Origin: Candidatus Dojkabacteria bacterium
GTDB lineage: Bacteria > Patescibacteriota > Dojkabacteria > J137
Assembly (NCBI GenBank): GCA_030834985.1
Contig: JAUQWV010000006.1
Location: 140,168-204,167 of the forward strand
Direction: 5' to 3'
Length of the DNA: 64,000 bases
The notes beneath the pieces were generated by a model. That model did not search any database, had not been told where the DNA came from, and saw only the letters and a program-made list of their open reading frames with translations. Below, in pieces: positions 22,068-39,187 of the stretch (position 1 is the stretch's first letter; each line of letters starts with the position of its first letter). A program made the position numbers and the translations under genes.

Positions 22068-22271
22068 TCACTTTCGTTTATAGATAACTTTATTATAGTA
22101 TAAGAATAAGAGCATTATAGAAATCGTAGATACGTAATGAAGTACGGCTCTGCCATTTAATAAATTTGAAGAATCACAAATGACGCCGTATAAATCTAAA
22201 TTTCTGGCAATAATACCTTTAATCGCTTTTTCACAATATTCTATAGTTGGGGTATCAAATAAAGATCTCAT
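22068..22271 (-). CDS. Small hypothetical protein, translationally coupled to the upstream ATPase gene
   Basis: 67 aa ORF starting 3 nt after the stop of 22275..24740. Hydrophobic C-terminus. No motif. Confidence 0.3.
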   Translation of the reverse strand: MRSLFDTPTIEYCEKAIKGIIARNLDLYGVICDSSNLLNGRAVLHYVSTISIMLLFLYYNKVIYKRK

Positions 22272-22274
22272 TAT

Positions 22275-24740
22275 TTAGAAACCGCCTAAACCACCGCCAA
22301 ATAATGAAGCTGGCTTCTTTTCTTCCTCAGTTTTTTCTTTAATAAAGGTTCCTCTGAGCTTAATTTCATTTTCAATAATATTCCTATCTTTACCATATTT
22401 AAGTCTGGAAATCTGTTTAGCAACATCTGCTATTTGTGGATTTGACTGTCCAATCATATCGTATGGAGAATCACCATAAAATGATCTAGTAGTAAATGCA
22501 GGTGTTGGTTTACCGTCTGCTAGCATTCTAAAATAAAAATTGAAGTTTTCAATCTGTTGAAGATCTGATTCATCTACAGTTTCACCCATCTCTTTAGATA
22601 GGAATACTGAATCATCGGCCCCCACTCTAAATACGGCTTTATTGCCAACATTACCGAAAACAGCATCTTTTATACTTGTATTATTGCCTTCTCTCACTAA
22701 TTGGCCTACGTATTGATGACCTAAAGTTAAAGCAAGTCTATACTTTCTAGCCTCAGATAGAATAACTTTGATTCCGTCGGTCAAGTAGTTTTGAAACTCA
22801 TCAATGTATAAATAGAATGGATTTCTAGATTTTTCATCGGTCCCTTCCCTTTCAAGAGCTGCAACAAGAAACTTACCAACTATTATCATACCAAGCAATG
22901 CTGCATTTAACTCACCTATCTTACCTTTGGTTAATTTAACAATAAGGATCTTGCCTTCATCCATTATTTTTCTAAAGTTTATTGTTGATTCCTGCTGAGC
23001 AATAATCGGCCTTACATACTGGTTAGTCAAAAATGGAGCTAATTTAGAAACAACGTATGGAGTAACATTCTTTAATCCAACATCTCCTGTAGCCTGCTCT
23101 GCCTGTTTTCGCCAGAAGTCAATCACCTCTTGGTCTGTGCATTTTGACAGCTTGTAGTTTCGATAGCCGTCATCTGCAAATATTTTTGGGATCTCCATTA
23201 AAGTAGAGCCCGATTCAATATCATCTGTTAAAAGCATAATTGCATATCTGAAGTACTGTTCAAACATTGGGCCTCCGGTAACTTTCAGATTGTACAATGT
23301 ATCAAAAATATTCAACATTTCGTTGGTAACAAGTGTACGTTGTGCCGGATTGCTAAACTCAAGCATATTCAAACCTACTGGGCGCTCTAAATCTGAAGGA
23401 TCAAAGATTACAACATCTTCCACTCTTTCAGGAGGGATCTGTTGTAATAATTTTTCAGCATCTGTTCCGTGTGGGTCAATATATCCGCATCCGTGACCCA
23501 ACTTCATATCTCTAATCATCATTCCCGACATAAATGCAGATTTACCTGTACCAGTTTGACCAATAACATAAAAGTGCCTTAAGCGGTCTTCAGGTTTAAT
23601 AAAGATCTCTTTAAATTGTCCTCTAAACGAGTTACGGCCTACGTACATATAGTCTTTTTGATAAGTGCTTGCCACAAAATCTGGAGCAGGAGCTTTTTTT
23701 GCTAGAAGCCACTTTATGTGAGGCGCTTCTACATTTTTATTTGGGAAGTGAAATAAAGTGGCTAGTTCAGCTGTATTTAAAATCATAGACTGCCTTGGTA
23801 TTCGGTATATTACATCTTCAGCAATAGTGCCTACTTCTTTATCTTTCATCTTTTTAAATTTATTTCCACCTTCTTTTAAGAACTGATCAAAAAGACTTAA
23901 AGAGTTAGCAAGGCTGGAGTCTGCACTAAATTTAGTATCCGAAATACAAACGATTCGTACATCTGTATAAAAGCCAGATTTATCTGCTTTTTTATCCATC
24001 AATGAAATCGTATCGTCGTCAAATTTAGGCTTTGATGCTTTTTCGCCTTCTTTAGCGGGCTCTCTGAGCTTTTTAACAAAATCTTTTGCTTCGTTACGCC
24101 ATTTAGAGCCCGCTGGGGAAATTATCATTTGAAAAACTGCCCCTTCGTTATCACGAAGCTTACTGAAAATATCTGTTAGCGCACCAACTGAATCAACTGC
24201 AAGCTCTTCATAGGTCTGAAATGGTATTCTAGTATCTTTATCAAGTTTTAAAGCAGCATATGAAGCGTATGCTGCATCAGGAAATAAGTTGTATTCTTTA
24301 ACCTGATTAATTTCAGCCTGAGGGTATGTACTGTTAATTTGTCTATCAACAATATTTGCAATACTTTTAGGACACACCACATAAAATTTAATAGACTCTT
24401 TAAATGCTACTATTTCAAAACTTACAAACTTTCTTGCGCCAATAAAGCTCTTAAATCCTTTAAGTTCCTCTCCTATACCTAACAACCCTGTATACATCTG
24501 CTCTGCTGCTCTAATTTCAACATCATTTGAATTAGGCAGTTTTACTTCAAAGAAAACTAAACCTAACCCTTTACGTTTTAAAACTGCCTGTTTAAAGCCC
24601 TGAAGATATTTAACTAGAAGAAAGCCACCTATAACTGCGAGTGCTAATAAAACAAAAATTATAACTGCAGCGCTTTGTACAGCACTCGCAGAAACAATTT
24701 CTTGTGTATTAAGATTTGATACGGATTGAGTTCCAAACAT
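22275..24740 (-). CDS. VirB4/VirD4-superfamily type-IV-secretion ATPase (VirB4/TrbE-like by size and motif positions)
   Basis: 821 aa. N-terminal TM AVIIFVLLALAVIGGFLLVKY. Walker A HFYVIGQTGTGKSAFMSG at ~aa 395. DPxGE-like motif YIDPHGTDAEKL. Walker B LYIDEFQNY at ~aa 645. This architecture is typical of VirB4/TrbE/CagE or TraG-like conjugation ATPases. Confidence 0.65.
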   Translation of the reverse strand: MFGTQSVSNLNTQEIVSASAVQSAAVIIFVLLALAVIGGFLLVKYLQGFKQAVLKRKGLGLVFFEVKLPNSNDVEIRAAEQMYTGLLGIGEELKGFKSFIGARKFVSFEIVAFKESIKFYVVCPKSIANIVDRQINSTYPQAEINQVKEYNLFPDAAYASYAALKLDKDTRIPFQTYEELAVDSVGALTDIFSKLRDNEGAVFQMIISPAGSKWRNEAKDFVKKLREPAKEGEKASKPKFDDDTISLMDKKADKSGFYTDVRIVCISDTKFSADSSLANSLSLFDQFLKEGGNKFKKMKDKEVGTIAEDVIYRIPRQSMILNTAELATLFHFPNKNVEAPHIKWLLAKKAPAPDFVASTYQKDYMYVGRNSFRGQFKEIFIKPEDRLRHFYVIGQTGTGKSAFMSGMMIRDMKLGHGCGYIDPHGTDAEKLLQQIPPERVEDVVIFDPSDLERPVGLNMLEFSNPAQRTLVTNEMLNIFDTLYNLKVTGGPMFEQYFRYAIMLLTDDIESGSTLMEIPKIFADDGYRNYKLSKCTDQEVIDFWRKQAEQATGDVGLKNVTPYVVSKLAPFLTNQYVRPIIAQQESTINFRKIMDEGKILIVKLTKGKIGELNAALLGMIIVGKFLVAALEREGTDEKSRNPFYLYIDEFQNYLTDGIKVILSEARKYRLALTLGHQYVGQLVREGNNTSIKDAVFGNVGNKAVFRVGADDSVFLSKEMGETVDESDLQQIENFNFYFRMLADGKPTPAFTTRSFYGDSPYDMIGQSNPQIADVAKQISRLKYGKDRNIIENEIKLRGTFIKEKTEEEKKPASLFGGGLGGF

Positions 24741-24806
24741 TTATATACTGCTAATTCGATTTATTATAGATTATTTTACCAGTTGAGGTAAGAGGATTTA
24801 TGCGAC

Positions 24807-25361
24807 TTACTTTTTTGACAAGCCCTGTTCTTCTATAAATTTTTGAAACTGAACAGAAAGCCACTTAGAAGTTGAGCTTAAAGATTTTTTGCTGTTCCGC
24901 TTAATATATTCAATTGCTTTATTAATATAAACAGGATTTATTGGAGGCTTAAAGCCATCTCCGTAAGGAGATTCTGCTTCTTCCGACTTAGCGGCAACTT
25001 GTATTGTAGCTGGTGTTGGGGCAGGTTGTGCTTGTTGGATAGCTGCCTCTTGTTGTTTTTCAACAGACTTTTCTATTGAGCTTTCTTTTTCAACTGTGGT
25101 TTCTATATTAGAATCTATCACTTGAGGCACTGCAGGCATATTAGGCATAGATTCCATTCCTCCATTAGACCCGCTAGCCTGAGAATTAGCAATTTGAGTT
25201 TTTACAAAATCATATGCAACACTTAAAAGCACAACCTGCCCATTTGGCGCAACTACTAAGGTCAGTCCGCTTTCGTCATAACCAAAGAACTTAAAACCAA
25301 ACTTTTCTACCAGTTTTAGTACTTCTATATCATTATTTTGAGCAACTGTCTGATTATTCAT
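24807..25361 (-). CDS. Hypothetical protein (Ala/Gln/Pro-rich linker)
   Basis: 184 aa ORF with no recognisable motif. Tightly packed between smpB and the ATPase gene. Confidence 0.45.
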   Translation of the reverse strand: MNNQTVAQNNDIEVLKLVEKFGFKFFGYDESGLTLVVAPNGQVVLLSVAYDFVKTQIANSQASGSNGGMESMPNMPAVPQVIDSNIETTVEKESSIEKSVEKQQEAAIQQAQPAPTPATIQVAAKSEEAESPYGDGFKPPINPVYINKAIEYIKRNSKKSLSSTSKWLSVQFQKFIEEQGLSKK

Positions 25362-25363
25362 AT

Positions 25364-25819
25364 TTATATATTATATTTTTTTCTATCTCTTTCGATTCCT
25401 CTTTTTATATCTTTTTCCTTAATAACATTTCTTTTATCAAATTTTTTTCGTCCTTTTACTAATGCAACATTTAATTTTACTAAACCTCTATCATCCTGTA
25501 TTACTTCTAAAGGAACAATTGTAATACCAGGCTGTTTTACTGAAGCTGCTAGCACAGTAATTTGTCTTTTAGTTAATAATAGCTTTCTTCTGCGCTTCTC
25601 ATCTACTTTAGATGAGCTACTTGCAAACTTCCACATTGGAATATTTGCACCCTCTAAAAACATTTCATTGTTTACATTTTTGATATATGCCCCAGCAAGG
25701 CTGATTTTACCAGCTTTAACAGACTTTACTTCCCATCCGAGCAAATTGATTCCAGCTGTAACGGTATCTAAAACGTCGAAGTCAAAATATGCCTTTTTAT
25801 TACTTGCTAGAACTTTCAT
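25364..25819 (-). CDS. smpB: SsrA-binding protein SmpB
   Basis: 151 aa. MKVLASNKKAYFDFDVLDTVTAGINLLGWEVKSVKAGKISLAGAYIK matches the SmpB N-terminal consensus (K-x-A-x-N-K-K-A-x-x-D-Y ... G-x-E-V-K-S). Basic C-terminal tail. Confidence 0.9.
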   Translation of the reverse strand: MKVLASNKKAYFDFDVLDTVTAGINLLGWEVKSVKAGKISLAGAYIKNVNNEMFLEGANIPMWKFASSSSKVDEKRRRKLLLTKRQITVLAASVKQPGITIVPLEVIQDDRGLVKLNVALVKGRKKFDKRNVIKEKDIKRGIERDRKKYNI

Positions 25820-25825
25820 CTACAA

Positions 25826-28411
25826 TTAAATATCCAACCTTATTATTGTGGTACCATCCAGTACATAGATTGCTCTACTTGCCTCGTTTACAACTACTTC
25901 TTTAATATTTTTAAATATATTTGAATCACTGCCTCTATAAATATATGAAGTATTATAGATTAAGTTTTTAGCATCTGAGTCCTCGATTGTAAAAAGCATA
26001 ACCCTTCGGTTATTTGGATCGGCAACCGCTAAAAGTTTACCATCAATGTCAATGGCAGTAGCATTAGAAATAGAATCTATATCTTTCTGTATTGTATTAA
26101 CAAAACTATCGGCAGTAATTGTATTTTCGCCTCCTGCTAAGTATCTGCGCAATCCTTTACCTCTAATTAATGTATAGATTTCGTAAGGAACTGTAATATC
26201 AATTGCACTTCCAAATTCTGGATCAGTTTTCCAATTAGGAGGATTCTGAACATTATATACTGCGCCTCCACCTACATAACCGTCAGCATCTTTATCTCTT
26301 TTAAATATCTGTTGGTGATTTTGATGTATTTCGTATAAGGCATCATTACCACTAAAGACAGCTGCTTTAGTAACATTTCCAATAACAGATTGAGAGAGAC
26401 CAGGAATCCTTTGAACACTTCCATCTCCAGATAGATTAATCTTGCCAACTGCACTTGTTGAATCGGTATCAAAGAATATAACGTCACCCGCTACATTCTT
26501 TGTTAGTGTGTATGGGGCACTCAGATTCGTTGCTATTTGATTTATCTGGGAATTCTCCTGAGTGCCCACTTGATAAATCGTATTTCTTCCTTTATCTGAA
26601 ACATATAGACCACCTGCTGCAAATACCATATCAGTCACATTCGCGTCTGAATATAACTTCCCGATATCTGCAATTACCAAAGGTTCACTAAATCCTACAA
26701 TTCCTAAAATATCATCCTTATTAGTTTGGATCTTTGTCTGTGCAGCATCAATTTCATCCAAGAATAGCTCTTCTTTTTTCTGAGCTTCAAATTTATTATT
26801 TAAACTATCTAATTGATTAACTAATTCTGTTTTTTGATCATCTGAAGTTGCAGATGGAATTCTTCTGATTATAGAATTAAGATCAGAAGTATAGGTATCG
26901 ATATTCGATCTTACCTGCTCCACCCTAGATTCTTCCTGTAATTGGATATTTCTATTGTTTATTGAATTAATGATAACCACACCTAAAACGATCACAAGAA
27001 TTATCAATATAATTCTGTTTCGTTTTCTACGTCTTGCTTTAGCAAACATATCTCGTCTATCATCCACACCTCCACCTATAAATTCTTTTTTAAACCAGCC
27101 TAAGAAACGAACAATCAAATCTTTTATCTTTATTACGATATCACGTAAATATTTAATATAAGTTTTATTACTTTTTTGCAAAAAAGGCATTAATTTTGTT
27201 TGAGAAAATGTTTTCAATCTCTCTGCAGCAGGGCCTGATGCTGCACCAAATTTGGATGTACTCCCATACAGTACATCTTCATCTTCAAATTGATCTTCTT
27301 GAAATTGACTGAACCTTTTTTCTCCTGAAGGTCTAAGTTCATCATCGTCTTCAAAGTCAACTTCAATCGGCACAGGTCTTGCGCTTTGAGCACCAGTCTG
27401 TGTACGCAGGTTATCTAGACTAGATCTACCAGCTGCAATAGAACGTGTTAAACCGCCTCTTAATCGACTCATTAACAATTTACCTCTTGGAATTTCTGCT
27501 TCAACATCTGCTAATGATCGAACATTTATCTCCTCTTCATCTTCTATACGTACATCATCTAATTCTACGGATTCAGCAGATACATTAGCCAAAGCATCAA
27601 TTGAATCTTCTGCTTCAAAATCCTCATCTTGAATTGGAATGTATTTAGCAGAGCCAGCAGAACCATCGATATACTCACCTTCTTCGTCTTCAACTTGAGC
27701 AGCAACTTCTGCTGGCTCTGCTAAATCAGCTAAAGGTTCATTTAAAACTTCATCCGGATCAGCATCTGCGGTTTTCCACTCATCATTTTCATCTGCTAAA
27801 AGCAATACTGCGGCACCTTGTTTAGATGCTAATGGTGATAAAGCTTTTATTCTTAAATTACTTACAGCTTCTTGAATAATATTTGAATCAATATCATTTG
27901 CAGTAGATGTAGAAAGAGCTAACCTATCCCCTTCTTCCAGTTCTAAACTTCCGGTTTTTAAGAAGCCCATCATACTTCCATCTGTTAGGCCTTGAGATAA
28001 GTCTGCATAGCGGTCACCTCTCTTAATAAATACCTTTGTTTCTCCGATTACTCCCAAATACAAAAAGTTCTTTTCAAAAAGTGCTAACCCAAGCTCAATA
28101 TCTAAACCATTTTGAGCGTATCTTTCATCTGAAGAAAGCAAAGTTTCCATTTTGGATTTCATTTTCCATACAGCATTTTCAAGTCTAATGTTGTAATCAC
28201 CTTCTTTTCCTTCCTCGAATAAATAATTCTGAAGCTCATCCAAAAACATTTTTGCTAATGCTTCCAAACGAGTTTCATTATTTGCTGTTTCAAGTTTAAT
28301 AATTGCAAAAAGCTCTAGAGGTTCAATGGAATTTTCAGGTTTAAAGTAATAAACTCCAGCCCACGAGTTAGAAGATTGAGTGCCGACTAAAAAATCTGCT
28401 CTTAATTGCAT
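25826..28411 (-). CDS. Large membrane protein: N-terminal cytoplasmic domain (possibly PP2C/SpoIIE-like), acidic linker, one TM helix, and a C-terminal extracellular repeat (beta-propeller-like) domain
   Basis: 861 aa. TM ILIILVIVLGVVIINSI at ~aa 480. Acidic stretch DEDFEAEDSIDAL...EDEEEINV. C-terminal repeats with NHL-like patterns (DIDGKLLAVADPNNRRVMLF). The N-terminal fold assignment is tentative. Confidence 0.5.
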   Translation of the reverse strand: MQLRADFLVGTQSSNSWAGVYYFKPENSIEPLELFAIIKLETANNETRLEALAKMFLDELQNYLFEEGKEGDYNIRLENAVWKMKSKMETLLSSDERYAQNGLDIELGLALFEKNFLYLGVIGETKVFIKRGDRYADLSQGLTDGSMMGFLKTGSLELEEGDRLALSTSTANDIDSNIIQEAVSNLRIKALSPLASKQGAAVLLLADENDEWKTADADPDEVLNEPLADLAEPAEVAAQVEDEEGEYIDGSAGSAKYIPIQDEDFEAEDSIDALANVSAESVELDDVRIEDEEEINVRSLADVEAEIPRGKLLMSRLRGGLTRSIAAGRSSLDNLRTQTGAQSARPVPIEVDFEDDDELRPSGEKRFSQFQEDQFEDEDVLYGSTSKFGAASGPAAERLKTFSQTKLMPFLQKSNKTYIKYLRDIVIKIKDLIVRFLGWFKKEFIGGGVDDRRDMFAKARRRKRNRIILIILVIVLGVVIINSINNRNIQLQEESRVEQVRSNIDTYTSDLNSIIRRIPSATSDDQKTELVNQLDSLNNKFEAQKKEELFLDEIDAAQTKIQTNKDDILGIVGFSEPLVIADIGKLYSDANVTDMVFAAGGLYVSDKGRNTIYQVGTQENSQINQIATNLSAPYTLTKNVAGDVIFFDTDSTSAVGKINLSGDGSVQRIPGLSQSVIGNVTKAAVFSGNDALYEIHQNHQQIFKRDKDADGYVGGGAVYNVQNPPNWKTDPEFGSAIDITVPYEIYTLIRGKGLRRYLAGGENTITADSFVNTIQKDIDSISNATAIDIDGKLLAVADPNNRRVMLFTIEDSDAKNLIYNTSYIYRGSDSNIFKNIKEVVVNEASRAIYVLDGTTIIRLDI

Positions 28412-28468
28412 ATACTTAAGTAACTTAACAATGTCTTTTAACAGTATATCAAAAAGAAATTTGTAAAG

Positions 28469-28690
28469 TTATGCAGACAAAATCAAAATTAGAGTTCCAA
28501 TTAAAATCGCTATATATGCGACTGATATTAAATCGAAGATTGGTCCATTACTTGTTTTGATAATTCTATTCATCTTTAAAGTTTGGAACACAAGAATAAA
28601 TCCTGCAAACATGTGAATAACACCAACAATGATTGCAATAATTTTTATAAATTCAATTATTTCTGGTGTTAATAAATCAGAGATTATCAT
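28469..28690 (-). CDS. Small two-TM membrane protein
   Basis: 73 aa, almost entirely hydrophobic. Overlaps the upstream gene by 14 nt, which suggests coupling. Confidence 0.4.
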   Translation of the reverse strand: MIISDLLTPEIIEFIKIIAIIVGVIHMFAGFILVFQTLKMNRIIKTSNGPIFDLISVAYIAILIGTLILILSA

Positions 28691-29435
28691 ATCTATAAGT
28701 TTTTGCTACATTAGATAAATCGGTAATTATATCTCTTACTTTTGTAGGAGAAGGTACCTTTAAACAAACCATTTCAGTTCTATCACTTGCACTGTAAACC
28801 AAAACATTACCATAATTAAAAATATCGCCGATAATTCCTGCAGAACGCTCTTTAACTTCCTGAATATCCTGCAGATTAACTTCAGAAACCGAGTAGCTTG
28901 AAAAAGGCCGGTAGTCATAATCCATAATTCGCTGATCAGTTACAATAAACGGATCAAAATACCAGTCAATAAAATGAGATACAATATCTGTAAAAATAAA
29001 AGAATAATAAACAAGCGCTAAAATAGTTGCTGCCTTGCTGCTTAAAAAGGAGATATCCATCTGTGCATTAAAAGCTACAAGAATTGAAGAAACTATAAAA
29101 GGTAAAATTATCAGAAAGAGGTTTTTTATAACCCAGCTTAGGTTAGTTAGCCAATGAGCTCTTACCAGTACATATACTTTTTCATCCGGATTTTGAGTTT
29201 CAAATACCAAATTAGGCTTTAAAATCATTGAGCCCCAAGTTAGGCCTATTTTCTTAGGTACGATTTTATCAGCTTCCTTTTCACGCATCCTCATTACATA
29301 TTCACGATTAGTTTGAGGCGGCTGCATATTTGTGGGATAGTAGTAGTAACCATTAAAAGGATTAGCCATGCCATTAGAGTGCAGTGGCCGTGGTTCTTTA
29401 TTTAGTTTCTGCTCGCTTTGATTGAATTTATCCAT
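28677..29435 (-). CDS. Membrane protein with a membrane-flanked PH-like (YdbS/YdbT bPH_2-type) architecture
   Basis: 252 aa. Two adjacent TM helices (IKNLFLIILPFIVSSILVAF; AATILALVYYSFIFTDIVSHF) followed by a soluble domain (IVTDQRIMDYDYRPFS...). Assignment by architecture only. Confidence 0.45.
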   Translation of the reverse strand: MDKFNQSEQKLNKEPRPLHSNGMANPFNGYYYYPTNMQPPQTNREYVMRMREKEADKIVPKKIGLTWGSMILKPNLVFETQNPDEKVYVLVRAHWLTNLSWVIKNLFLIILPFIVSSILVAFNAQMDISFLSSKAATILALVYYSFIFTDIVSHFIDWYFDPFIVTDQRIMDYDYRPFSSYSVSEVNLQDIQEVKERSAGIIGDIFNYGNVLVYSASDRTEMVCLKVPSPTKVRDIITDLSNVAKTYRYDNL

Positions 29436-29448
29436 ACCTGATTATAAC

Positions 29449-30912
29449 TTATTTAGGATTTACTAATATAATCTGGTTACTAATCTGCGGCACACTTGCT
29501 GCATCTATCAAAAATACTGGGAAAAACTGGCTTACTTGGGTGGCTAACTCTATTTTCTTTGAGATTGCCTGAATTTCTTGGTCAAGAAGTGAGGATTTCT
29601 GCAATGATTCCGAATTTCCTTTAAAGCCAAATTCAATATTCTCTTTTTCTATCTTTAAGATATCGACCTCTCTTCTTTTTTTATAGTATTCATCCGAGGT
29701 AATAGATTTACTACTTAACTCTTCTATTTCAGTATTTTTTTGAGCTAATTTACTAGAAATATCTTTTAGATCTGCTTGTAAAGTCTCGTATGATTTACCA
29801 TTCAAGTTTTTTTCAATATTTCGACCTAATAAATCAATCTCTAATTTCAATGCATTAAGTAAAGCTGAATTTATAAAAAGCTGAGAGTTCGGATCTGAAT
29901 AATTCCTAACATTGTCAACCTGAGCTACGGGAGCTACATTGGGGACCATCTGTGCGCTTAAAGCTAAGTCATCTTCACTTGCAGGTAAACCTTCCAGCGC
30001 ATCTTTATAGAATCGGGAAATTATATACAGTAAGCTTAAAATCACAGAGAATATCATTCCAGCCAATAAGACAGAAAAGCTGTATGAATAGAGAAATCCG
30101 ATAATCGTAATAACAATATTAAGTATTGCTAGAACCACTGTCGGATTAACCTCAAATATCCGTTGTCTTTTATTTTCATCTTCTTCTGAGTTTATGATTG
30201 GTGCGTTTCTTTTAGAAGATAGATTCGTATTTGTAAACTCAATCTTTTTACTTTTTAGATCTGTAACCTCTTCTTTAGAAGGTGCAGCTGAATTAAAAGA
30301 ATCTATTTTACTTTGTAGCTCGTTTTTCTTTGTAATAATCAACTCTACCGACTTTAGCATTTGAGATATTGTATCCTGCTCTGTTTTCAACGACTTTATT
30401 TCCTTATTTATTTCATCCTTTAATTTCTTTTCATTTTGGTAAAAATCAACCTGTTCCTGTACAGATTTAATTCTAGATTCAACTTCCTGAAGTCTAGCAA
30501 ACTTTTGTTTTTCCTCTTCTGATAGTGATTGCTGCAGCTGCCCCGATAGCGATGTCTTTTGTTGCTTTTTTGCTTCAAGTTCAGATTGTAAGGATGGGTC
30601 AATAGTTAATACTAATCTTTTTATATTATTTACAAATTCATCGGATTGTATGGCAGCTGCATTAATAACTCTACTTTGTAATGCTTGTTCAGAAAGGATT
30701 ATGCCAGCTTGAGCTTTAAGAATCTCAAAAAAACTTTGTTCCGATGGTACTGTGTATTCGGTATTATCAGCCACTTGAAAGCTCAAGCTGGCGTCCTGTA
30801 CAACTTGGTTACTCAAAATCTGCAAAACTTTATTCATTTCGTCTAAAGAAATTGATTCATTCTCTAGATTAATTACTCTATCTGCATTTTTGAATATTTT
30901 TAGTTTAAACAT
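29449..30912 (-). CDS. Coiled-coil protein with a central pair of TM helices
   Basis: 487 aa. Long heptad-like Gln/Glu/Lys-rich stretches. Central hydrophobic hairpin VVLAILNIVITIIGFLYSYSFSVLLAGMIFSVILSLLYII. Confidence 0.5.
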   Translation of the reverse strand: MFKLKIFKNADRVINLENESISLDEMNKVLQILSNQVVQDASLSFQVADNTEYTVPSEQSFFEILKAQAGIILSEQALQSRVINAAAIQSDEFVNNIKRLVLTIDPSLQSELEAKKQQKTSLSGQLQQSLSEEEKQKFARLQEVESRIKSVQEQVDFYQNEKKLKDEINKEIKSLKTEQDTISQMLKSVELIITKKNELQSKIDSFNSAAPSKEEVTDLKSKKIEFTNTNLSSKRNAPIINSEEDENKRQRIFEVNPTVVLAILNIVITIIGFLYSYSFSVLLAGMIFSVILSLLYIISRFYKDALEGLPASEDDLALSAQMVPNVAPVAQVDNVRNYSDPNSQLFINSALLNALKLEIDLLGRNIEKNLNGKSYETLQADLKDISSKLAQKNTEIEELSSKSITSDEYYKKRREVDILKIEKENIEFGFKGNSESLQKSSLLDQEIQAISKKIELATQVSQFFPVFLIDAASVPQISNQIILVNPK

Positions 30913-30923
30913 CTGACAGAAAG

Positions 30924-31826
30924 CTAATTAGTACATGCAGACGGATCACAACTCGATCTACAAAATAGAGTCAGTGCATTATCTCCAGTACCAATCATTA
31001 CACGTTCTCTCCTACACCAGGTAGGAGCTCCTGGGCTGTCACCCTCTTGAACTCTGCACAATAAATCAACCCTATTCAATCCAAGAAAACCTGTAGGACA
31101 ATCGTTAGAATCCATCCCTTCTCTGCCCTGGCACAAAATACCTTCAGGCTGTAAACCTTCTTGAAGAGCTACACAAGGAGCTGCTAAAAACCTTGCAGCA
31201 ATTACACCTTTAGGATCTGTACATAAACTTCCATAAAAGAACTGAAAGCCTGGCATATTTACGTTGTAACATTGTGCCGATTCATTTATTCCAAGTAACC
31301 TAAATACTGTAGTCAGAATCGGCACTGCCAAGAATACTAATGCAAATCCGATTAAATAATTGATAATACGTTTCCTAACTTCTGTGATTTTAGTAGGATC
31401 ACCTCGTGAAATCAGATAATCAAAACCCATTTTTACAACAAGCAAGAATGATAATGAAGCAACTAATCCCCAAATTGCATATAAGATTCTTACAAACCAT
31501 ACTTCTATTTGCTGTAGTGCAGGAGGCTTTAATTGAGCAATAATTTTATCTGTAGGGTTTGAACAATCGTTGCCGGCTGCGTTAATGCTATTGTTTGGAC
31601 AACAGAAGTAATTTCCAAAACTATCTGGCCCAGCTACAGTCAATTTTACTGTACCTTGATTGTCACTTAATACTTCACCTGATTGTTTATCAAAACATTG
31701 ATAGCTATCTGGATTGTTACCCGAAAAATCAAAAGATTGTAACTGTGCATCTACACTTGAAGTTAAAAAATTCCCAAACAATAAATTAGCAAAAATAAAT
31801 ATGTACAGAAGTGTTTTTTTCTTCAT
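30924..31826 (-). CDS. VirB2/TrbC-like two-helix pilin-like protein with Cys-rich N- and C-terminal extracellular extensions (paralog 1 of 6)
   Basis: 300 aa. Signal peptide. Core motif hydrophobic helix - ISRGDPTKITEVRKRI - hydrophobic helix, shared with the five genes upstream. 20 Cys outside the core. Confidence 0.5.
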   Translation of the reverse strand: MKKKTLLYIFIFANLLFGNFLTSSVDAQLQSFDFSGNNPDSYQCFDKQSGEVLSDNQGTVKLTVAGPDSFGNYFCCPNNSINAAGNDCSNPTDKIIAQLKPPALQQIEVWFVRILYAIWGLVASLSFLLVVKMGFDYLISRGDPTKITEVRKRIINYLIGFALVFLAVPILTTVFRLLGINESAQCYNVNMPGFQFFYGSLCTDPKGVIAARFLAAPCVALQEGLQPEGILCQGREGMDSNDCPTGFLGLNRVDLLCRVQEGDSPGAPTWCRRERVMIGTGDNALTLFCRSSCDPSACTN

Positions 31827-31884
31827 TAGACTTAATATTAATAATCTACTACTATAATAGATTAAAGAGATTTGCTAAGCAACT

Positions 31885-31915
31885 AAAAGCCCCCCGATTA
31901 ACGGGGGGGGGCTTT
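31885..31915 (-). terminator. Intrinsic terminator inside the pilin-like gene array (after paralog 2)
   Basis: Hairpin gcccccc-gattaa-cgggggggc with flanking A/T runs, between 31948..32436 and 30924..31826. Confidence 0.65.
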
Positions 31916-31947
31916 TCATAATCTCTATTAAAATTATTCTCTTATGC

Positions 31948-32436: not shown

Positions 32437-32453
32437 AAAGTTTTTTTAATAAA

Positions 32454-32888
32454 TTAATTTGTAATTAAAGGTATTTGCGTACCCTCCGGCGCATTTAATG
32501 TTACATTTAGAATACCACCAGCACCAAAGAATGCAAGTACTATTATTAATCCTATCAAACCTACAAAAATAATTCCAATGCCAATGTATACTCCTCTCAT
32601 CATCCCAACTCCTGCCTCTATCTGGCTTGGATCTCCGTTACTTCTTATTATAGTAACAGCCGCTTTAATAATCAAGAAAACACCATAAAGCATTATTGCT
32701 ATAAAAATAAAAGCAAGTAAAGCCTTTATTAAGTTTGTTACCTGAGAATTTACATCACCGCATGCATCAAATACAGATGTATTATACTGATCACACGGCA
32801 AAACATCTGCAGCAGTTTGGGCTAATACATTAACCTTTAATAATAAAGTTAATGCTATAAAAGCTGTAATTTTAAAAAGATTTTTCAT
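32454..32888 (-). CDS. VirB2/TrbC-like two-helix pilin-like protein (paralog 3)
   Basis: 144 aa. Signal peptide. Core ...AVTIIRSNGDPSQIEAGVGMMRGVYIGIGIIFVGLIGLIIVLAFFGAGG, near-identical in its C-terminal helix to paralog 2. Confidence 0.55.
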   Translation of the reverse strand: MKNLFKITAFIALTLLLKVNVLAQTAADVLPCDQYNTSVFDACGDVNSQVTNLIKALLAFIFIAIMLYGVFLIIKAAVTIIRSNGDPSQIEAGVGMMRGVYIGIGIIFVGLIGLIIVLAFFGAGGILNVTLNAPEGTQIPLITN

Positions 32889-32897
32889 AGTTTTTTG

Positions 32898-33473
32898 TTA
32901 ATTTCCTAAAGGTTGACAAGCAGCTTCTGCAGCTGCAGCATCAGTATTTTGAGTTTTATCTAAAAGCGCCTGATAGTAAAATTCGTAATTAGTGGTATCG
33001 CTACAAAATTGAAACATCTTTGGCCAGCTGAATATTGTTCCTACTCCTAACAACAAACCTACTACACTTAAAACTACTGGGAAAAACAAAGTTATTGCAG
33101 CACCCAGAAGTACTGATTGTACTTGTTTAAATGCCACTGCTAAGTTTTCCGCATTGCCTTGACTCTGCAAGCCTTTAACTCCAGCTTTAACAAGTAAAAA
33201 TACCCAGAATACAACTAAACCTATAGTAGCTAAAGCTCCTACAAAAGAAAGCCAGCTTAAAATACTCGCATTATTAGTATCAAAATCAATAAAGCTGGCG
33301 AATATTGGTATTCTAATTTCTCCTAATGCCAGTTCGTCATCAATATTACAATTTACACAAGAAGTAGTTGAATTAATAAGGCCACCAGGTCTATCTTGCG
33401 CAAGAACTGGAAGAACCATTAAGCTAACGCTTATAGCAAATGTAGTTATTGAGTAAATTAAATATTTCTTCAT
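32898..33473 (-). CDS. VirB2/TrbC-like two-helix pilin-like protein (paralog 4, divergent)
   Basis: 191 aa. Signal peptide. Core LATIGLVVFWVFLLVKAGVKGLQSQGNAENLAVAFKQVQSVLLGAAITLFFPVVLSVVGLLLG. Confidence 0.45.
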   Translation of the reverse strand: MKKYLIYSITTFAISVSLMVLPVLAQDRPGGLINSTTSCVNCNIDDELALGEIRIPIFASFIDFDTNNASILSWLSFVGALATIGLVVFWVFLLVKAGVKGLQSQGNAENLAVAFKQVQSVLLGAAITLFFPVVLSVVGLLLGVGTIFSWPKMFQFCSDTTNYEFYYQALLDKTQNTDAAAAEAACQPLGN

Positions 33474-33474
33474 A

Positions 33475-34116
33475 TTATTTTATAGTTATAACTACTCCGC
33501 CTGTATCTCCTCCACTAATATCCAGGTTGCTTAATTGCCCAACACCTATTAGGTTGGCAATAACCTGTATTATTATTATAAAGCCCCAGCAAATAATTGC
33601 TCCAAGTACAAGATTTGTCAGCTCTTGATTAATTGCAGCAATCTCATCGGGAGTTGAAACCATCGTCCGCTTTACACCTGTTACATAGATTCCTCTAACA
33701 ATTGCATATAACGAAACAAATCCTAAGACAGTTGTAAATAATATATTTATAATAGTACCGATATTATCTGGATTCACCCTTATTGTAGTATTAAAAACTT
33801 CAAAGCTTCTAAATAGCTCTGGATTACCTTCTCCCGGCAATGTACCTGACTGTCTAGATCCGTCAGCATTGACGCATATATTAGGACAGCATCTTGTTCC
33901 AGGACTAGTAATTCTTTGAAGCTGGCAGTTCAAGTCTGCTGTGTATCCGCCAGATATTCCAGGCCTATAAGGCGCAGGGCAAGCATTAGGAATATAATAT
34001 GGAGCTTGGCAGTTTGCTCCACCGATTTCGTTCTCTGGATCGCCACCATTTGCGCTCACACTATCAAAGCTTAAGAAGCTTAAGATTAAAACTCCAAATA
34101 TTAATATTTTTTTCAT
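33475..34116 (-). CDS. VirB2/TrbC-like two-helix pilin-like protein with a Cys/Pro/Gly-rich N-terminal extracellular domain (paralog 5, divergent)
   Basis: 213 aa. Signal peptide. N-domain with 10 Cys (NCQAPYYIPNACPAPY...CCPNICVNADG). C-terminal two-helix core LYAIVRGIYVTGVKRTMVSTPDEIAAINQELTNLVLGAIICWGFIIIIQVIANLIG. Confidence 0.45.
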   Translation of the reverse strand: MKKILIFGVLILSFLSFDSVSANGGDPENEIGGANCQAPYYIPNACPAPYRPGISGGYTADLNCQLQRITSPGTRCCPNICVNADGSRQSGTLPGEGNPELFRSFEVFNTTIRVNPDNIGTIINILFTTVLGFVSLYAIVRGIYVTGVKRTMVSTPDEIAAINQELTNLVLGAIICWGFIIIIQVIANLIGVGQLSNLDISGGDTGGVVITIK

Positions 34117-34125
34117 TCTGATATA

Positions 34126-34506
34126 TTAATTCTGAATTAAGCCGCCCTGGATACCTAAAAGTCTTCCGGCAAAATCTACTATTGTTGGCGCAAAAACAGC
34201 AATTGCAAAACCTACAATCGCAGCTACTATTATTTGACTGCTTGATTTAACTTTATCCGGATTACCTTGCGAAGTTAATCTTATCCAACCTCCGTATAAA
34301 ACCATTGCTCCAAAAGCAATAATAAATACTGGTCTAATTAAAGTTGTTACAGCATTAATAATATCTTCAAGACTGCCATATCTAGTTGGGTTAGGAATTT
34401 GAAAATTTTGATTTACATTAGTTAGTCCGCCAGCAAGAACAGGTACTGAGAAAATTACTAATTGAGTTATTACAACCGCAAATGTTAAAAACTTTTTTTT
34501 ACTCAT
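34126..34506 (-). CDS. VirB2/TrbC-like two-helix pilin-like protein (paralog 6)
   Basis: 126 aa. Signal peptide. Core FIIAFGAMVLYGGWIRLTSQGNPDKVKSSSQIIVAAIVGFAIAVFAPTIV. Confidence 0.5.
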   Translation of the reverse strand: MSKKKFLTFAVVITQLVIFSVPVLAGGLTNVNQNFQIPNPTRYGSLEDIINAVTTLIRPVFIIAFGAMVLYGGWIRLTSQGNPDKVKSSSQIIVAAIVGFAIAVFAPTIVDFAGRLLGIQGGLIQN

Positions 34507-34524
34507 AATTAAATATGTCTTAAA

Positions 34525-37104
34525 TTAATTTACAATATCTCTAACAGTTAGTCCATCAAATACAGCTTCCATACCACTTCTGAGCTTACCCTGAATTATT
34601 AAATCTGCTAACTTGTCTTCAATATTTTCTTGTATTATTCTTTTTAATTCTCGCGCACCGTATGTTGGGCTAAAACCACGTTCAGATAATTCAGATAAGG
34701 TTCTCTCATTCCATAAAAAACTTATTCCTCGCTGCATCAAGTTATCATTTATTTTCTTTAGCATTAATGTAACAATCTGCTCAATTTCTATTTTAGACAA
34801 AGGTTTGAACATTATCAACTTATCAAATCTGTTTAAGAATTCTATTCTAAAAGATTCCTGTAATTTACTACCTACTAATTTTTCAACTTCATGATATTTT
34901 TGCCCTTTTAAAATCTCATTTGCAATAAGATTAGAGCCGATATTTGATGTCATAATTATGATTGTGTTTGTAAAATCAATCTTTCGGCCCATTCCATCTT
35001 TTAAGGTGCCTTCATCTAGAACTTGCAAGAATAAATCCAGTACCTTTTTATTTGCCTTTTCAATTTCATCTAATAAGATTAAAGAGAATGGTCTTGTACG
35101 AACAGCCTCTGTTAAGTACCCGCCAATAAAGTTGCCTTTATCATCGGTATATCCGATTATCCTATTTAAATTCAGTTCCTCTTGATATTCCGACATATCA
35201 AGCCTGATCATTAAGTTCTCACTACCGTAATATATATCAGCTAATGTTCGGGCTACCTCTGTTTTTCCAACTCCGGTTGGTCCATAAAATAAGAAAGATG
35301 CAATCGGTTTTTTACCGGCAGACAGACCTGATCGTGATCTTTTTATTGCAGATGCTACAGCATCAATTGCTTCTTGCTGACCTACAACCCGTTCATGCAT
35401 TTGAATAGATAGATTCATCAAGGTCTGGCTTTCTGATTCAGACAAATTTCCAACTTTAACGCCAACTCTATCGGATAAAACTTCATCAACTGTAGCAACG
35501 TCTAAGAAAGCCAGACCTTGATTCTTTGCTGCAAGACAGGCTTCTTCCAAAAGATCAATACCCTTATCTGGCATTACTCTATCTTGGTCAAATTTAGGAG
35601 CAAATTCTACAATTCTTTTTAGAGCGTTTACTCTAACACTTGTCTTATATTTCTTTTCAATTCTTGGAACTTCATCGATCAAAATTTGAAGAGCAACATT
35701 AGAAGCTGGTTCCTTTAAATGTACTACATCAAAACTTGCTGCCAATGTTTTAATGGGCTTAACATATTTGGAATAATTTGCATTATTTGTTGTTGCAATA
35801 ATCTTTAAATTCAATGCATCGATTGCATTTGTAATTAAATTTACAACCTCTAGTTTTGAGTCTTCACGTATATTTAGTATTTGTGTAAATTCTTCTAAAA
35901 CCAGAATTATATTTCCGGAATATCTGACCTCTTCAAACATTTTCTGTAAAGTCTGTTTAAAGATATCAACTGAACCAACCTGAGTCAGCACTTTATTTAA
36001 ATCAACAACTAAAAGTCTATGATCGTATAAAGAATTCGGAATATCTTCTACAACCATTCTAGTAGCTAAATGTCTAATAAACCTAGTTTTGCCAACACCC
36101 GGATCTCCTAAAACCATACATGCAGTTGCACGTCCTCGCTCCATTGATTGTAAAAGTCTAGCCATTTCCTGTTCTTTACCTATTGTTAACATAAAATAGC
36201 CAGTCGCTGCTTCTTTAGTAAAATCTTCAGAATATTCATCAAGTACTGGAGTAACTCTAGAGGTATATGCTCTATTTACATCGCCCTTTGGTTTTAACTT
36301 CGATAACTTTTCCCATCTTTCGTAATATTCCTTTTGTTTAGTTTCATTTTTAAACCAAACTCTTAACCCTTCAAGTTCTAACTCTGAAACACCTAAATCA
36401 AAATATATTGGTTTTAAAAAATACTTATTAAGAACAAAAAATAGTATGAACTTATTAATGCTGTTTGACTCTATTTTTATTGCTTCATCAAATAAGTATA
36501 GAAAAAGTGTTTTATGAGCATCACTGAATTTATATGATTGACTATTTTCATTCTGTTTTAATAACTCAATAAATTTATCTACATTTACTCCTAGCCTATT
36601 TTTTAAAAAGTATTGAATCTCTTTATGTTCAATAAGCAAACGAGTAAGGTTTACAATAAATGGATAGTTGTTATCTACTAACGTCTTATCAATAATTACT
36701 AAAGTTTCAAAATCCATGAACTCATCTATATAAAGTTCTATCTGTTTTCCGCTTTCAATTTGTTTAACCTTTTTAAGTAGATCAAATTTTTTAATAGATG
36801 TATCGAATTTATCGCGGTTTCTGCGTAAAAATAATGCAATGATGAAAGTATAAATACCTAAAAATGGTAAGTAGGTTAACAAAGATGTTGGATTTAGGAA
36901 CATATCTAAACCAAGATTACCTTGTAATACTAATAATCCTACAGGTACTGCTATAAGAATAAGCGTAAAAAGATCAAGCAGCCTCGAAGCACTTTTTTCA
37001 GTTCTATATACCGATAGTCTATCGCCTCTAAAATAAGATAGAGAATGCAGATCAACTACAATTTTTGCATTTTTATACTTTGCTAAAACTACATTTCCTT
37101 TCAT
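34525..37104 (-). CDS. Membrane-anchored double-AAA+ ATPase of the Clp/Hsp100 (ClpA/B/C) family: N-terminal TM domain replaces the Clp_N domain
   Basis: 859 aa. Residues ~40-95 hold two hydrophobic helices (LLDLFTLILIAVPVGLLVLQG; LLTYLPFLGIYTFIIALFL). D1 Walker A GDPGVGKTRFIRHLA. D2 Walker [16 protein letters not shown] plus sensor/arginine-finger region. C-terminal ClpB_D2-small-like domain (TYGARELKRIIQ). No Clp_N repeats. Confidence 0.7.
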   Translation of the reverse strand: MKGNVVLAKYKNAKIVVDLHSLSYFRGDRLSVYRTEKSASRLLDLFTLILIAVPVGLLVLQGNLGLDMFLNPTSLLTYLPFLGIYTFIIALFLRRNRDKFDTSIKKFDLLKKVKQIESGKQIELYIDEFMDFETLVIIDKTLVDNNYPFIVNLTRLLIEHKEIQYFLKNRLGVNVDKFIELLKQNENSQSYKFSDAHKTLFLYLFDEAIKIESNSINKFILFFVLNKYFLKPIYFDLGVSELELEGLRVWFKNETKQKEYYERWEKLSKLKPKGDVNRAYTSRVTPVLDEYSEDFTKEAATGYFMLTIGKEQEMARLLQSMERGRATACMVLGDPGVGKTRFIRHLATRMVVEDIPNSLYDHRLLVVDLNKVLTQVGSVDIFKQTLQKMFEEVRYSGNIILVLEEFTQILNIREDSKLEVVNLITNAIDALNLKIIATTNNANYSKYVKPIKTLAASFDVVHLKEPASNVALQILIDEVPRIEKKYKTSVRVNALKRIVEFAPKFDQDRVMPDKGIDLLEEACLAAKNQGLAFLDVATVDEVLSDRVGVKVGNLSESESQTLMNLSIQMHERVVGQQEAIDAVASAIKRSRSGLSAGKKPIASFLFYGPTGVGKTEVARTLADIYYGSENLMIRLDMSEYQEELNLNRIIGYTDDKGNFIGGYLTEAVRTRPFSLILLDEIEKANKKVLDLFLQVLDEGTLKDGMGRKIDFTNTIIIMTSNIGSNLIANEILKGQKYHEVEKLVGSKLQESFRIEFLNRFDKLIMFKPLSKIEIEQIVTLMLKKINDNLMQRGISFLWNERTLSELSERGFSPTYGARELKRIIQENIEDKLADLIIQGKLRSGMEAVFDGLTVRDIVN

Positions 37105-37427
37105 AAACTAAGTACTATATACCTTATTAACTGAATAATTGGTAAAAACGGTAATACTGCTAATGAAATTCCAAAAAGTAAGAATGGAATTGTAACAACC
37201 AAGCTTATACACGATCCCACTCCAATCCACATAAATCTAATAATAAAGCTTACAAATTTACCAATTCCTGAATTATCTTGAAATAATGGCTGTGAAATAT
37301 TCTTTGCCATCGGCAAAGTATTAGTCAAATTAAGGTTATAAACAAATCTACCTAATACGTAGTCTTCCCAAAAATCTTTAACTAGCGATAAATACCACCA
37401 GGAAAAAACAAAAAATAAATTCGCCAT
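37101..37427 (-). CDS. Small polytopic membrane protein, first gene of the locus (4-nt ATGA overlap with the AAA+ gene)
   Basis: 108 aa with 2-3 predicted TM helices. Its stop overlaps the downstream start, which suggests co-translation. Confidence 0.45.
   Translation of the reverse strand: MANLFFVFSWWYLSLVKDFWEDYVLGRFVYNLNLTNTLPMAKNISQPLFQDNSGIGKFVSFIIRFMWIGVGSCISLVVTIPFLLFGISLAVLPFLPIIQLIRYIVLSL

Positions 37428-37537: not shown

Positions 37538-39187
<1,650 letters not shown>

Follow-up and report, generated by a model that had tools for sequence, protein, structure and literature searches.

In Patescibacteria (candidate phyla radiation, CPR), only a few machineries have been demonstrated to be essential to epibiotic life. 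A type IV secretion system (T4SS) is one of them, and its function there is unknown (PMC10633639, PMC11665869). Tandem arrays of 2–11 divergent VirB2-like pilins have already been described in these bacteria (PMC12102498), and in Southlakia epibionticum, one of the Saccharibacteria, a six-pilin array (SEML1_0014-0019) lies within the essential T4SS cluster SEML1_0006-0019 (PMC10633639, PMC12857230). Patescibacterial genomes carry about two homologues of type IV coupling proteins (T4CPs) each, mostly far from virB4 (PMC12102498). Here we analyzed a 64-kb chromosomal piece of a Candidatus Dojkabacteria bacterium (the window), in which 16 minus-strand genes, called g1 to g16 in the direction of transcription (Table 1), had initially been annotated as one minimal or divergent T4SS with an AAA+ ATPase as partner. 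The interval holds T4SS-related parts, namely pilins and an ATPase of the VirB4/VirD4 superfamily, yet it fails as a T4SS locus of the conjugation-type, MPF-FATA-like kind of Patescibacteria. We consider it probable that it is a composite of independently conserved modules lying head to tail, and not one machine.

Like the described patescibacterial T4SS (PMC10633639, PMC12102498, PMC12857230), the interval has a tandem array of divergent PF18895 pilins, six in both, lies at a chromosomal site near the origin, lacks a relaxase gene and has a ‘T4CP-like’ ATPase apart from virB4. It differs in that no VirB4, PrgI or VirB6 gene adjoins the array (none in the window), in that the array directly follows a membrane-anchored Clp-like pair, with which it is probably co-transcribed, and in that this copy of the locus has no VirB1-like hydrolase. 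Clp or AAA proteins did not turn up in term searches of the full text of PMC12102498 and PMC10633639. For Patescibacteria, reports of pilin arrays and of scattered T4CP-like ATPases had appeared in 2023–2025. Relative to the searched literature, the module g1-g2 with its predicted dead D1 and live D2 rings, its apparent co-transcription with pilins and the VirB4-type N-domain modeled for the DUF8128 family are new.

By sequence, no open reading frame (ORF) of the window matched the VirB4 models CagE_TrbE_VirB and AAA_10 or TraC-type models, and no ORF of the interval matched VirB3/PrgI, VirB6 or VirB8 in Pfam or NCBIfam. The interval encodes no polytopic protein (≥5 transmembrane helices), and a relaxase domain, expected of the conjugative subtype only, was found nowhere in the window (Pfam and NCBIfam). 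The initial annotation had likewise noticed no VirB6, VirB8-11 or relaxase gene, and the Pfam and NCBIfam models applied to the window ORFs agreed. All window ORFs of ≥500 amino acids (aa) were identified except one 731-aa protein, and none is of the TraC/VirB4 type, PrgI or VirB6. VirB2-type pilins are present, two of them above the Pfam gathering score and the other four through hhalign. A published survey lists VirB4 for two Dojkabacteria assemblies (PMC12102498 Table S1), so the T4SS core is most likely encoded elsewhere in the Dojkabacteria genome.

A comparison of the locus across related genomes, proposed along with the initial annotation, splits the interval into independent modules. 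It included sister contigs (L004, L006), other Dojkabacteria (L001, L003 and L008-L010, of which L010 is a distant one), loci of other classes (L011-L013), a set of 80 GTDB loci or genomes with relatives of g15, and 80 loci of the g2 family from a motif-based metagenome scan, 71 of them with upstream sequence. The whole order g1 to g15 is conserved in several Dojkabacteria (including L097 and L098), and pilins directly follow g2 in all seven Dojkabacteria-type loci with the g2 family (the window, L008-L010, L095, L097 and L098). Across genomes the T4SS parts do not co-occur as a unit. Pilins lie near g15 relatives in 2 of the 80 GTDB loci, in which g10, g11, g12 and smpB (g13) accompany g15 relatives only in Dojkabacteria and, rearranged, in Levybacteria. 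In L010, groESL, g1, g2 and the pilins are kept and then followed by unrelated genes; g9 to g15 are not downstream, and this module is separate. The idea of a single T4SS built from all 16 genes found no support in this comparison, since the units are conserved separately.

On profile evidence, g3 to g8 are genuine VirB2-like (PF18895) T4SS pilins, as the six two-helix proteins had been read at first. g3 and g8 score above the Pfam gathering score of PF18895 (T4SS_pilin; 26.6 bits) and g7 below it. No direct PF18895 match was obtained in Pfam for the window copies of g4 to g6; their orthologues reach 19–23 bits (E-values of 1.8e-4 and 1.2e-3 for g4, 9.6e-5 and 9.2e-4 for g5), and those of g7 match within 1e-3 to 1e-4. 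When families built from Dojkabacteria orthologues were compared by hhalign, every paralogue family was linked to g3 with 92.8–97.4% probability (g4, 96.5%, E = 8e-10; g5, 96.0%, and 98.7% to g7; g6, 92.8%, and 99.8% to g7; g7, 93.5%). The unrelated two-helix families g1 and g11, used as negative controls, gave ≤2.5%. Hydropathy indicated a signal segment and two transmembrane helices in g3 to g7, and a two-helix hairpin in g8, whose signal peptide was read from the sequence. A loop motif, S-x-G-[DN]-x-x-K, aligned in the families of g3, g6 and g7; similar motifs were read from the sequences of g5 and g8, and g4 has none. We found 1:1 orthologues of g3 in L008, L009, L010, L095, L097 and L098, and orthologues of g8 in L008, L009 and L010. 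Six distinct paralogue types with 1:1 orthologues recur in the same order in genomes in which g2 has 41–54% identity, so the array is old and differentiated and not a recent amplification.

That these two-helix proteins are holins or phage proteins unrelated to T4SS pilins, and the ATPase not VirB4/VirD4-like, had been named beforehand as the outcome that would overturn the T4SS assignment; we find it scarcely credible. It would fit the missing direct Pfam matches of g4 to g6, and the pilin profile retrieved nothing meaningful from the PDB sequences. However, the PF18895 scores of g3 and g8 and the hhalign links of all six, with clean controls, rule out holins or phage membrane proteins, the annotated housekeeping genes around the locus include no phage genes, and the Foldseek results for g15 described below contradict the second half of the proposal.

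All 16 ORFs were confirmed as tightly spaced or overlapping, with successive gaps of -4, 18, 9, 1, 9, 17 and 121 nucleotides (nt) from g1 to g8 and of 11, 13, -14, 57, 6, 2, 66 and 3 nt from g8 to g16. Their common orientation, pointed out at the outset, is true of all 16 but not particular to them. Almost every gene from 542 to 48907 lies on the minus strand, with two plus-strand exceptions at 19981 and 43970, and at ~48.9 kb the strand switches, every gene to the right being on the plus strand. The GC skew changes sign at ~52–56 kb of the window. The interval therefore lies on one replichore, close to a probable replication origin, despite which neither dnaA nor dnaN was seen in the 64 kb. 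In such a position, with an orientation shared by most of the window, co-orientation alone is uninformative on operon membership, and tight spacing is the sole operon-like signal.

A consensus scan detected two terminator-like hairpins. The first, the weaker of the two, directly follows groEL and likely marks the putative start of a transcription unit at g1. The second lies inside the 121-nt gap between g7 and g8, and its stem consists of seven G-C pairs in a genome of 34% GC; it is likely an intrinsic terminator or attenuator closing a unit from g1 to g7. Neither gap nor hairpin exists in L008 and L009, two more distant genomes with 34 nt and 2 nt at the corresponding place. These matches suggest transcription units g1-g7 and g8-g16.

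The pair g1-g2 is, by its distribution, a phylum-wide module of its own with proteostasis neighbors. The description of g2 as a membrane-anchored double-AAA+ Clp-like protein was borne out by an N-terminal transmembrane hairpin (~residues 42–93) and by Pfam matches. The hairpin is followed by a Clp_N-like region, a degenerate D1, an intact D2 and a D2-small domain. With two AAA+ modules, lid (AAA_lid_9) and D2-small domains, g2 has the make-up of class I Clp/Hsp100 proteins (ClpB, ClpC, ClpA, ClpV), and its D2 aligns to residues 534–841 of E. coli ClpB without notable gaps. The alignment covers D1 (residues 285–526) and D2 (537–844) and skips ClpB 402–533, the M-domain. g2 misses the NCBIfam equivalog cut-offs for ClpB (466.5 bits vs 1232), ClpA (408 vs 993) and ClpV1 (396 vs 885).

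In a motif alignment of g2 with 24 relatives (n = 25) and the ClpC of the window, none of the 25 family members had the Walker B ‘DE’ in D1, one of 25 had the D1 arginine-finger pair, and the D1 pore position had no tyrosine and no aromatic residue. In D2, Walker A and B, sensor-1, the arginine finger (R759) and the GAR sensor-2 are invariant. From these motif states, the D1 ring is predicted to be catalytically dead and the D2 ring to be live. Apart from these losses in D1, g2 differs from class I proteins by its transmembrane hairpin, by its obligatory pairing with a small membrane protein and by the absence of both the M-domain and the ClpP-docking loop in comparison with E. coli ClpB and the window ClpC, whose loop reads LGF. 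Lacking the M-domain, g2 should not couple to DnaK as ClpB does. The aromatic residue of the D2 pore loop (GN[FY]) is kept in Dojkabacteria, and the wider family is without a canonical aromatic. The ClpC of this genome is itself unusual in its D1 pore loop, which reads KLRGDVEE instead of the usual KYRGEFEE, with leucine replacing the tyrosine. FtsH and Msp1/ATAD1 are AAA+ rings tethered to the membrane by N-terminal helices; they are single-ring class II AAA proteins, and FtsH adds a protease domain. g2 resembles them in its membrane-tethered ring and in the proposed extraction of membrane proteins, but is a double-ring Hsp100 without a protease partner.

g1 matched no Pfam or NCBIfam model; its shared motifs are WWY and P-x-F-x-D...G-[KR]-x-I-x-F-x-x-R. 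Small g1-like membrane-protein ORFs lie directly upstream of the g2-family genes in L008-L013, and g1 adjoins g2 in 66 of the 71 metagenome loci with upstream sequence. In S. epibionticum the equivalent genes, SEML1_0701 (127 aa) and SEML1_0700 (860 aa), overlap. Both are non-essential, with growth impaired late, and ~650 kb separate them from the T4SS cluster, which is essential. GroES/EL genes precede g1-g2 in all Dojkabacteria loci, ClpP is encoded in L008, and a canonical ClpB adjoins the pair in 14 of the 80 metagenome loci (L131, L133, L136, L137, L145, L152, L153, L158, L160, L161, L165, L168, L169 and L173). These neighboring soluble ClpBs are usually divergent, with ~880 aa in complete copies (one ends at a contig edge) and ~400 residues between the Walker A motifs. 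Only 3 of the 80 metagenome loci, all of them Dojkabacteria-type, have a VirB2-like pilin array after g2, and most g1-g2 loci have no pilin nearby. Immediately upstream of g1-g2 in L011, L116, L123, L128 and L134, we observed type-IV-pilus-type prepilins (G-F-S-[IM]-I-E-L); as neighbors in a minority of loci and in one lineage outside Dojkabacteria, they are suggestive. On the GC-rich contig L013 (ERZ27249449 k141_415783), with proteins of non-patescibacterial appearance, a g2-family ATPase (835 aa, N-terminal transmembrane helix) with a g1-like small ORF adjoins a resolvase, a DUF87/TrwB-like ATPase of 857 aa and a Replic_Relax gene. Judging from this context, the module may occur outside the CPR or on mobile elements.

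In Dojkabacteria, g1-g2 could have been recruited to dislocate pilins or take pili apart, as a motor that draws VirB2-like hairpins from the membrane or recycles pilus subunits, analogous to VirB4-driven pilin dislocation or to ClpV recycling of type VI secretion system sheaths. We regard this as possible, if on the unlikely side; it does not conflict with reading the remaining genes as a composite. The constant position of the pilins after g2, kept although g2 identity falls to 41–52%, the terminator-like sites bracketing g1 to g7 and the prepilins before g1-g2 in another lineage speak for it, as does a membrane-anchored g2 without ClpP loop, which would be a stand-alone remodeler. However, most g1-g2 loci have no nearby pilin, the S. 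epibionticum homologues are non-essential while its pilins are essential, and the D2 pore loop outside Dojkabacteria lacks the canonical aromatic. GroESL upstream is also as strongly conserved as the pilins downstream, so the g2-pilin adjacency may be inherited synteny.

The assignment of g15 to the VirB4/VirD4 superfamily held in Pfam, profile and Foldseek searches. It carries the Walker A motif GQTGTGKS and the Walker B motif YIDEF. Its homologues contain PF26449 (DUF8128), with or without PF10412, PF12696, PF02534 and PF01935, and are named ‘TraM recognition domain-containing’ or ‘T4SS DNA-binding domain-containing’ at NCBI. g15 itself gave only sub-threshold matches to sequence models, all of the coupling-protein type (TraG-D_C, 19.4 bits vs a cut-off of 22; TrwB_AAD_bind, 18.3 vs 20.5; DUF87; NCBIfam TraD and VirD4-like, far below). 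As a single sequence it matched nothing among PDB sequences; its family profile found DotL (4.9e-5) and TrwB (1.6e-3), and VirB4 was not found. The AlphaFold model (predicted local distance difference test, pLDDT, 81) comprises one N-terminal transmembrane helix, an alpha/beta N-domain of 300 aa (~44–345) and a P-loop motor interrupted by an all-alpha insertion. With the full model, Foldseek ranked TrwK/VirB4 first among PDB structures (5.6e-15), with Cag-beta (2.8e-11), HerA and TrwB (6e-10) behind, and TrwB superposed on the motor with a target-normalized TM-score (TMt) of 0.63–0.70. For the N-domain alone (pLDDT 85.5), the top 14 PDB matches were all TrwK/VirB4 (E = 2e-7 to 6e-5; query-normalized TM-score, TMq, 0.49–0.56), and the next matches were unrelated folds with TM-scores of ~0.2–0.4. 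According to these models, g15 has a VirB4 architecture with a motor nearest to coupling proteins by sequence.

g15 thus shares with TrwK/VirB4 of R388 (PDB 7O41-7O43, 8RTB, 8RTD) the N-domain plus C-terminal RecA-like motor, and its N-domain matches the VirB4 N-domain only. In contrast to TrwK, it has its own N-terminal transmembrane helix, no similarity at the sequence level was detected (profile vs PDB), and its neighbors are smpB, g14 and xer, not genes for VirB3, VirB6 or VirB8. The TraC-type VirB4 of patescibacterial T4SS clusters is a separate family; in S. epibionticum it is SEML1_0008 (612 aa, K12063/TraC-like). Coupling proteins (TrwB, VirD4/Cag-beta, DotL) are the sole sequence-level matches of g15, and its motor with the all-alpha insertion superposes on TrwB. 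They have two N-terminal transmembrane helices before the nucleotide-binding domain and no VirB4-like N-domain of 300 aa, whereas g15 has one helix, stays below all curated cut-offs and has no relaxase or transfer-origin context.

The g15 family is phylum-wide, with at least 598 GTDB genomes matched; relatives in Saccharibacteria, ABY1, Paceibacteria and Microgenomatia align along almost the whole protein at 36–41% identity. It matches the published ‘T4CP homologues’ far from virB4. S. epibionticum has two such proteins encoded far from its T4SS, the essential SEML1_0142 of 1019 aa and the non-essential SEML1_0293 of 921 aa; neighbor synteny in Saccharibacteria-labeled metagenome-assembled genomes allowed no choice between them as the g15 orthologue. 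Upstream of g15, g14 matched no family in Pfam or NCBIfam. A small ORF on the same strand, mostly of ~120–190 aa, ends ≤250 nt upstream of the DUF8128 ATPase in 73 of 86 loci. Homology of these ORFs across classes was considered and set aside: profile similarity is weak (19–53% hhalign probability between lineages), and we treat them as positional analogues.

Directly downstream of DUF8128 ATPases, a divergent XerC/D-like tyrosine recombinase gene and a conserved ~137-aa gene without family match were observed in 19 of the 80 GTDB loci, mostly in Microgenomatia and Dojkabacteria (e.g., L048, L050, L060, L064). This neighborhood, also found in the window, and the motor in the FtsK/HerA/VirD4 superfamily would suit a translocase acting on DNA in concert with the Xer recombinase, with a role like that of FtsK and not in secretion. 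We rejected it as the principal explanation and hold it to be very unlikely, given that the xer linkage is confined to two lineages, that S. epibionticum has a canonical and essential FtsK (SEML1_0096) and that the N-domain matches VirB4 and not FtsK.

Table 1 Coordinates of the genes and other features discussed (positions in the window unless a locus code precedes them)
Feature	Description	Position	Strand	Evidence or remark
g1	Small membrane protein, 108 aa	37101..37427	-	Stop overlaps g2 start by 4 nt
g2	Membrane-anchored Clp/Hsp100-like ATPase, 859 aa	34525..37104	-	Pfam AAA_2 4.7e-49, ClpB_D2-small 7e-22
g3	VirB2-like T4SS pilin, 126 aa	34126..34506	-	PF18895 5.5e-08, 33.2 bits
g4	Pilin paralogue, 213 aa, Cys-rich extracellular N-terminal extension	33475..34116	-	hhalign to g3 family
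g5	Pilin paralogue, 191 aa	32898..33473	-	hhalign to g3, g7
g6	Pilin paralogue, 144 aa	32454..32888	-	hhalign to g7, g3
g7	Pilin paralogue, 162 aa	31948..32436	-	PF18895 3.4e-4, 21.1 bits
g8	Pilin paralogue, 300 aa, Cys-rich extracellular N- and C-terminal extensions	30924..31826	-	PF18895 2.3e-09, 37.6 bits
g9	Coiled-coil protein, 487 aa, central transmembrane hairpin (258-298)	29449..30912	-	
g10	Membrane protein with two transmembrane helices, 252 aa, C-terminal bacterial PH domain (YdbS/YdbT-like)	28677..29435	-	
g11	Protein with two transmembrane helices, 73 aa, DUF5657	28469..28690	-	PF18901 2.3e-06, 28.1 bits (gathering 25)
g12	Single-pass membrane protein, 861 aa	25826..28411	-	Profile vs PDB
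g13	smpB	25364..25819	-	PF01668 2.4e-45, 154 bits, profile positions 2-142 of 143
g14	Soluble protein, 184 aa, low-complexity middle, conserved C-terminal helix	24807..25361	-	
g15	DUF8128 ATPase, 821 aa	22275..24740	-	Homologues carry PF26449; AlphaFold 2 model; Foldseek
g16	Ceramidase-family (PF05875) remnant, 67 aa	22068..22271	-	
Hairpin 1	Terminator-like hairpin 3′ of groEL	37490..37507	-	6-pair stem then TTTTTA (consensus scan)
Hairpin 2	Strong GC hairpin in g7-g8 gap	31890..31908	-	7 G-C pairs then CTTTT
xer region	Recombinase at 19981-20850	19492-20850		Divergent to g15
groEL		37538-39169		
ClpC		3489-6026	-	
rRNA operon		7886-13153		
tRNA-Met(CAU)-type	Two genes	19219-19454		
tRNA-Ile	Anticodon UAU	21844-21919	-	Just downstream of the interval
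Gene pair	PilM/FtsA/MreB-like actin-fold protein (406 aa), then conserved 731-aa protein	40403-43820	-	
tmRNA		47607-48067		
Ceramidase-family gene	Intact copy, sister contig	L004:12470-13117		
SpoIID gene	Other Dojkabacteria	L001:3121-4896		
SpoIID gene	Other Dojkabacteria	L003:3706-5487		
SpoIID gene	Other Dojkabacteria	L008:17983-19758		
SpoIID gene	Other Dojkabacteria	L009:17346-19154		
Prepilins	Upstream of g1-g2	L011:8135-9524		

Between the pilins and the ATPase, g9 gave only weak matches to SMC/Rad50-type coiled coils (NCBIfam), and its orthologues occur only in Dojkabacteria-like loci. It had been described as bitopic; its two adjacent transmembrane helices form a hairpin instead. g10 was rightly called PH-like, with a weak match in the window copy (bPH_2, 3.8e-3) and better ones in orthologues (bPH_3, 4.2e-5; bPH_2, 3.2e-4); its profile found nothing meaningful among PDB sequences. 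g11 overlaps g10 by 14 nt. In other Dojkabacteria, a gene for a SpoIID-domain protein (590–600 aa, N-terminal coiled coil) lies between the g9 and g10 orthologues; this peptidoglycan-remodeling gene is absent from the locus in this window. g12, predicted at first to be a membrane protein with an extracellular propeller, consists of a cytoplasmic PP2C-like domain, an acidic linker, one transmembrane helix (467–485) and an extracellular NHL-type beta-propeller. Its profile matched the Pizza/PknD NHL propellers among PDB sequences with E-values of 9e-13 to 4e-7 and PstP-type PP2C with ~0.01, and one orthologue matches PP2C_2 and another NHL. The PP2C-like domain is probably non-catalytic, and the protein looks like a signaling receptor whose propeller resembles the PknD sensor domain.

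g13 is smpB, as annotated, and is a housekeeping passenger; the tmRNA, the partner of SmpB, is encoded in the same window. The ORF of g16 is present as first described, but it is a decayed gene and not part of any system. The sister contigs L004 and L006 carry an intact ceramidase-family protein of 215 aa with seven transmembrane helices, from which g16 arose by an in-frame deletion of 444 nt between short direct repeats encoding ‘GIIAR’.

Gene content, folds and motif states, together with the synteny statistics, are observations; from them we infer how the modules may work, including the co-transcription and the location of the core. Each pilin would be exported by Sec, have its signal peptide cleaved and sit in the membrane as a helical hairpin, and a T4SS core elsewhere in the genome (TraC-type VirB4, PrgI/VirB3, VirB6) would extract and polymerize the pilins. 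g1-g2 would be a membrane-tethered Hsp100 driven by the D2 ring alone, translationally coupled to its small membrane protein, and may remodel proteins embedded in the membrane or extract them. Its apparent co-transcription with five pilin genes (g3-g7) in Dojkabacteria makes pilins plausible clients in this class and implies no general T4SS link. g9 to g12 would be envelope or signaling proteins (coiled-coil hairpin, bacterial PH, DUF5657 and PP2C-like/NHL receptor). g14-g15 would be a phylum-wide pair, with g15 as a presumably active P-loop ATPase, most likely a membrane-bound hexameric translocation or assembly ATPase.

We judge it unlikely that the interval is instead a self-contained divergent pilus or T4SS in which g15 is the VirB4-equivalent motor, g9 to g12 replace the VirB6/VirB8 scaffold, the pilins make up the fiber and g1-g2 serves as accessory ATPase. 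Such a machine would explain the tight spacing and common orientation, the order kept from g1 to g15 in several Dojkabacteria, the VirB4-like N-domain and motor of g15, and a SpoIID gene placed in sister genomes as a VirB1 analogue would be. It is at odds with smpB within the run, with the strong terminator-like hairpin inside the pilin array, with modules that separate in L010 and in other classes, and with g2 and g15 families that are phylum-wide and almost never adjacent to pilins. Moreover, g12 resembles a signaling receptor, two Dojkabacteria assemblies were reported as VirB4-positive (PMC12102498), and the Saccharibacteria T4SS has a different VirB4 together with PrgI and VirB6.

Several points weigh against the composite that we favor. 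The packing is very tight, and in each of the seven Dojkabacteria-type loci g2 and g3 overlap or lie no more than 133 nt apart, as would fit a true functional connection of the pilins with the Clp-like pair. The modeled VirB4-like fold of g15 would place a VirB4-type motor within the interval. The location of a canonical VirB4/VirB6/PrgI core elsewhere is taken from one published table, and VirB3-, VirB6- or VirB8-like folds among g1, g9-g11 and g14 were excluded by sequence models only. Within-class synteny can reflect inheritance and not function, which cuts both ways.

Several metagenome contigs encode proteins with 100% identity to g15 and g2, whose named relatives are nearly all from Dojkabacteria; the organism is an ultrasmall patescibacterium, which fits the initial annotation. 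The interval is flanked by housekeeping genes, among them those for Rho, ClpC, S1, the rRNA operon, PolA, FtsH, GroES/EL, a PilM/FtsA-like protein, a Lon-like AAA protein, L25, YidC, tmRNA, RuvX, YceG, LexA, IleRS, signal peptidase I, ParA/ParB and RNase Y. Around ~48900–56000, yidC and the tmRNA gene lie on one side and ruvX, yceG, lexA, parA and parB on the other. The PilM/FtsA/MreB-like gene and its partner are a syntenic pair upstream of groES in L008-L010, and the 731-aa partner had no family match at Pfam or NCBIfam cut-offs. Next to the end of the interval lies a tRNA-Ile gene with the anticodon UAU, and two tRNA-Met(CAU)-type genes were seen nearby. Most bacteria decode AUA with a lysidine-modified CAU tRNA.

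Dense co-oriented gene runs in CPR genomes are not safely read as operon-encoded systems, as what appeared to be a minimal T4SS splits into modules here. Pilin arrays can lie apart from the VirB4 core and, in one class, are apparently co-transcribed with an Hsp100 whose D1 is predicted to be dead. If g1-g2 acted as a pilin dislocase, it would provide a retraction-like dislocation or recycling function not known for T4SS pili; if g15 is what its fold suggests, the DUF8128 ‘coupling-protein homologues’ would make up a second VirB4-type lineage of assembly motors, equipped with a transmembrane anchor of their own and a small upstream partner. Both together would amount to an alternative pilus route independent of the VirB4/VirB6 core, which we consider quite doubtful. 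A VirB4-type N-domain in the abundant CPR ‘T4CP homologues’ changes which function to test, and one of the two S. epibionticum copies (SEML1_0142) is essential.

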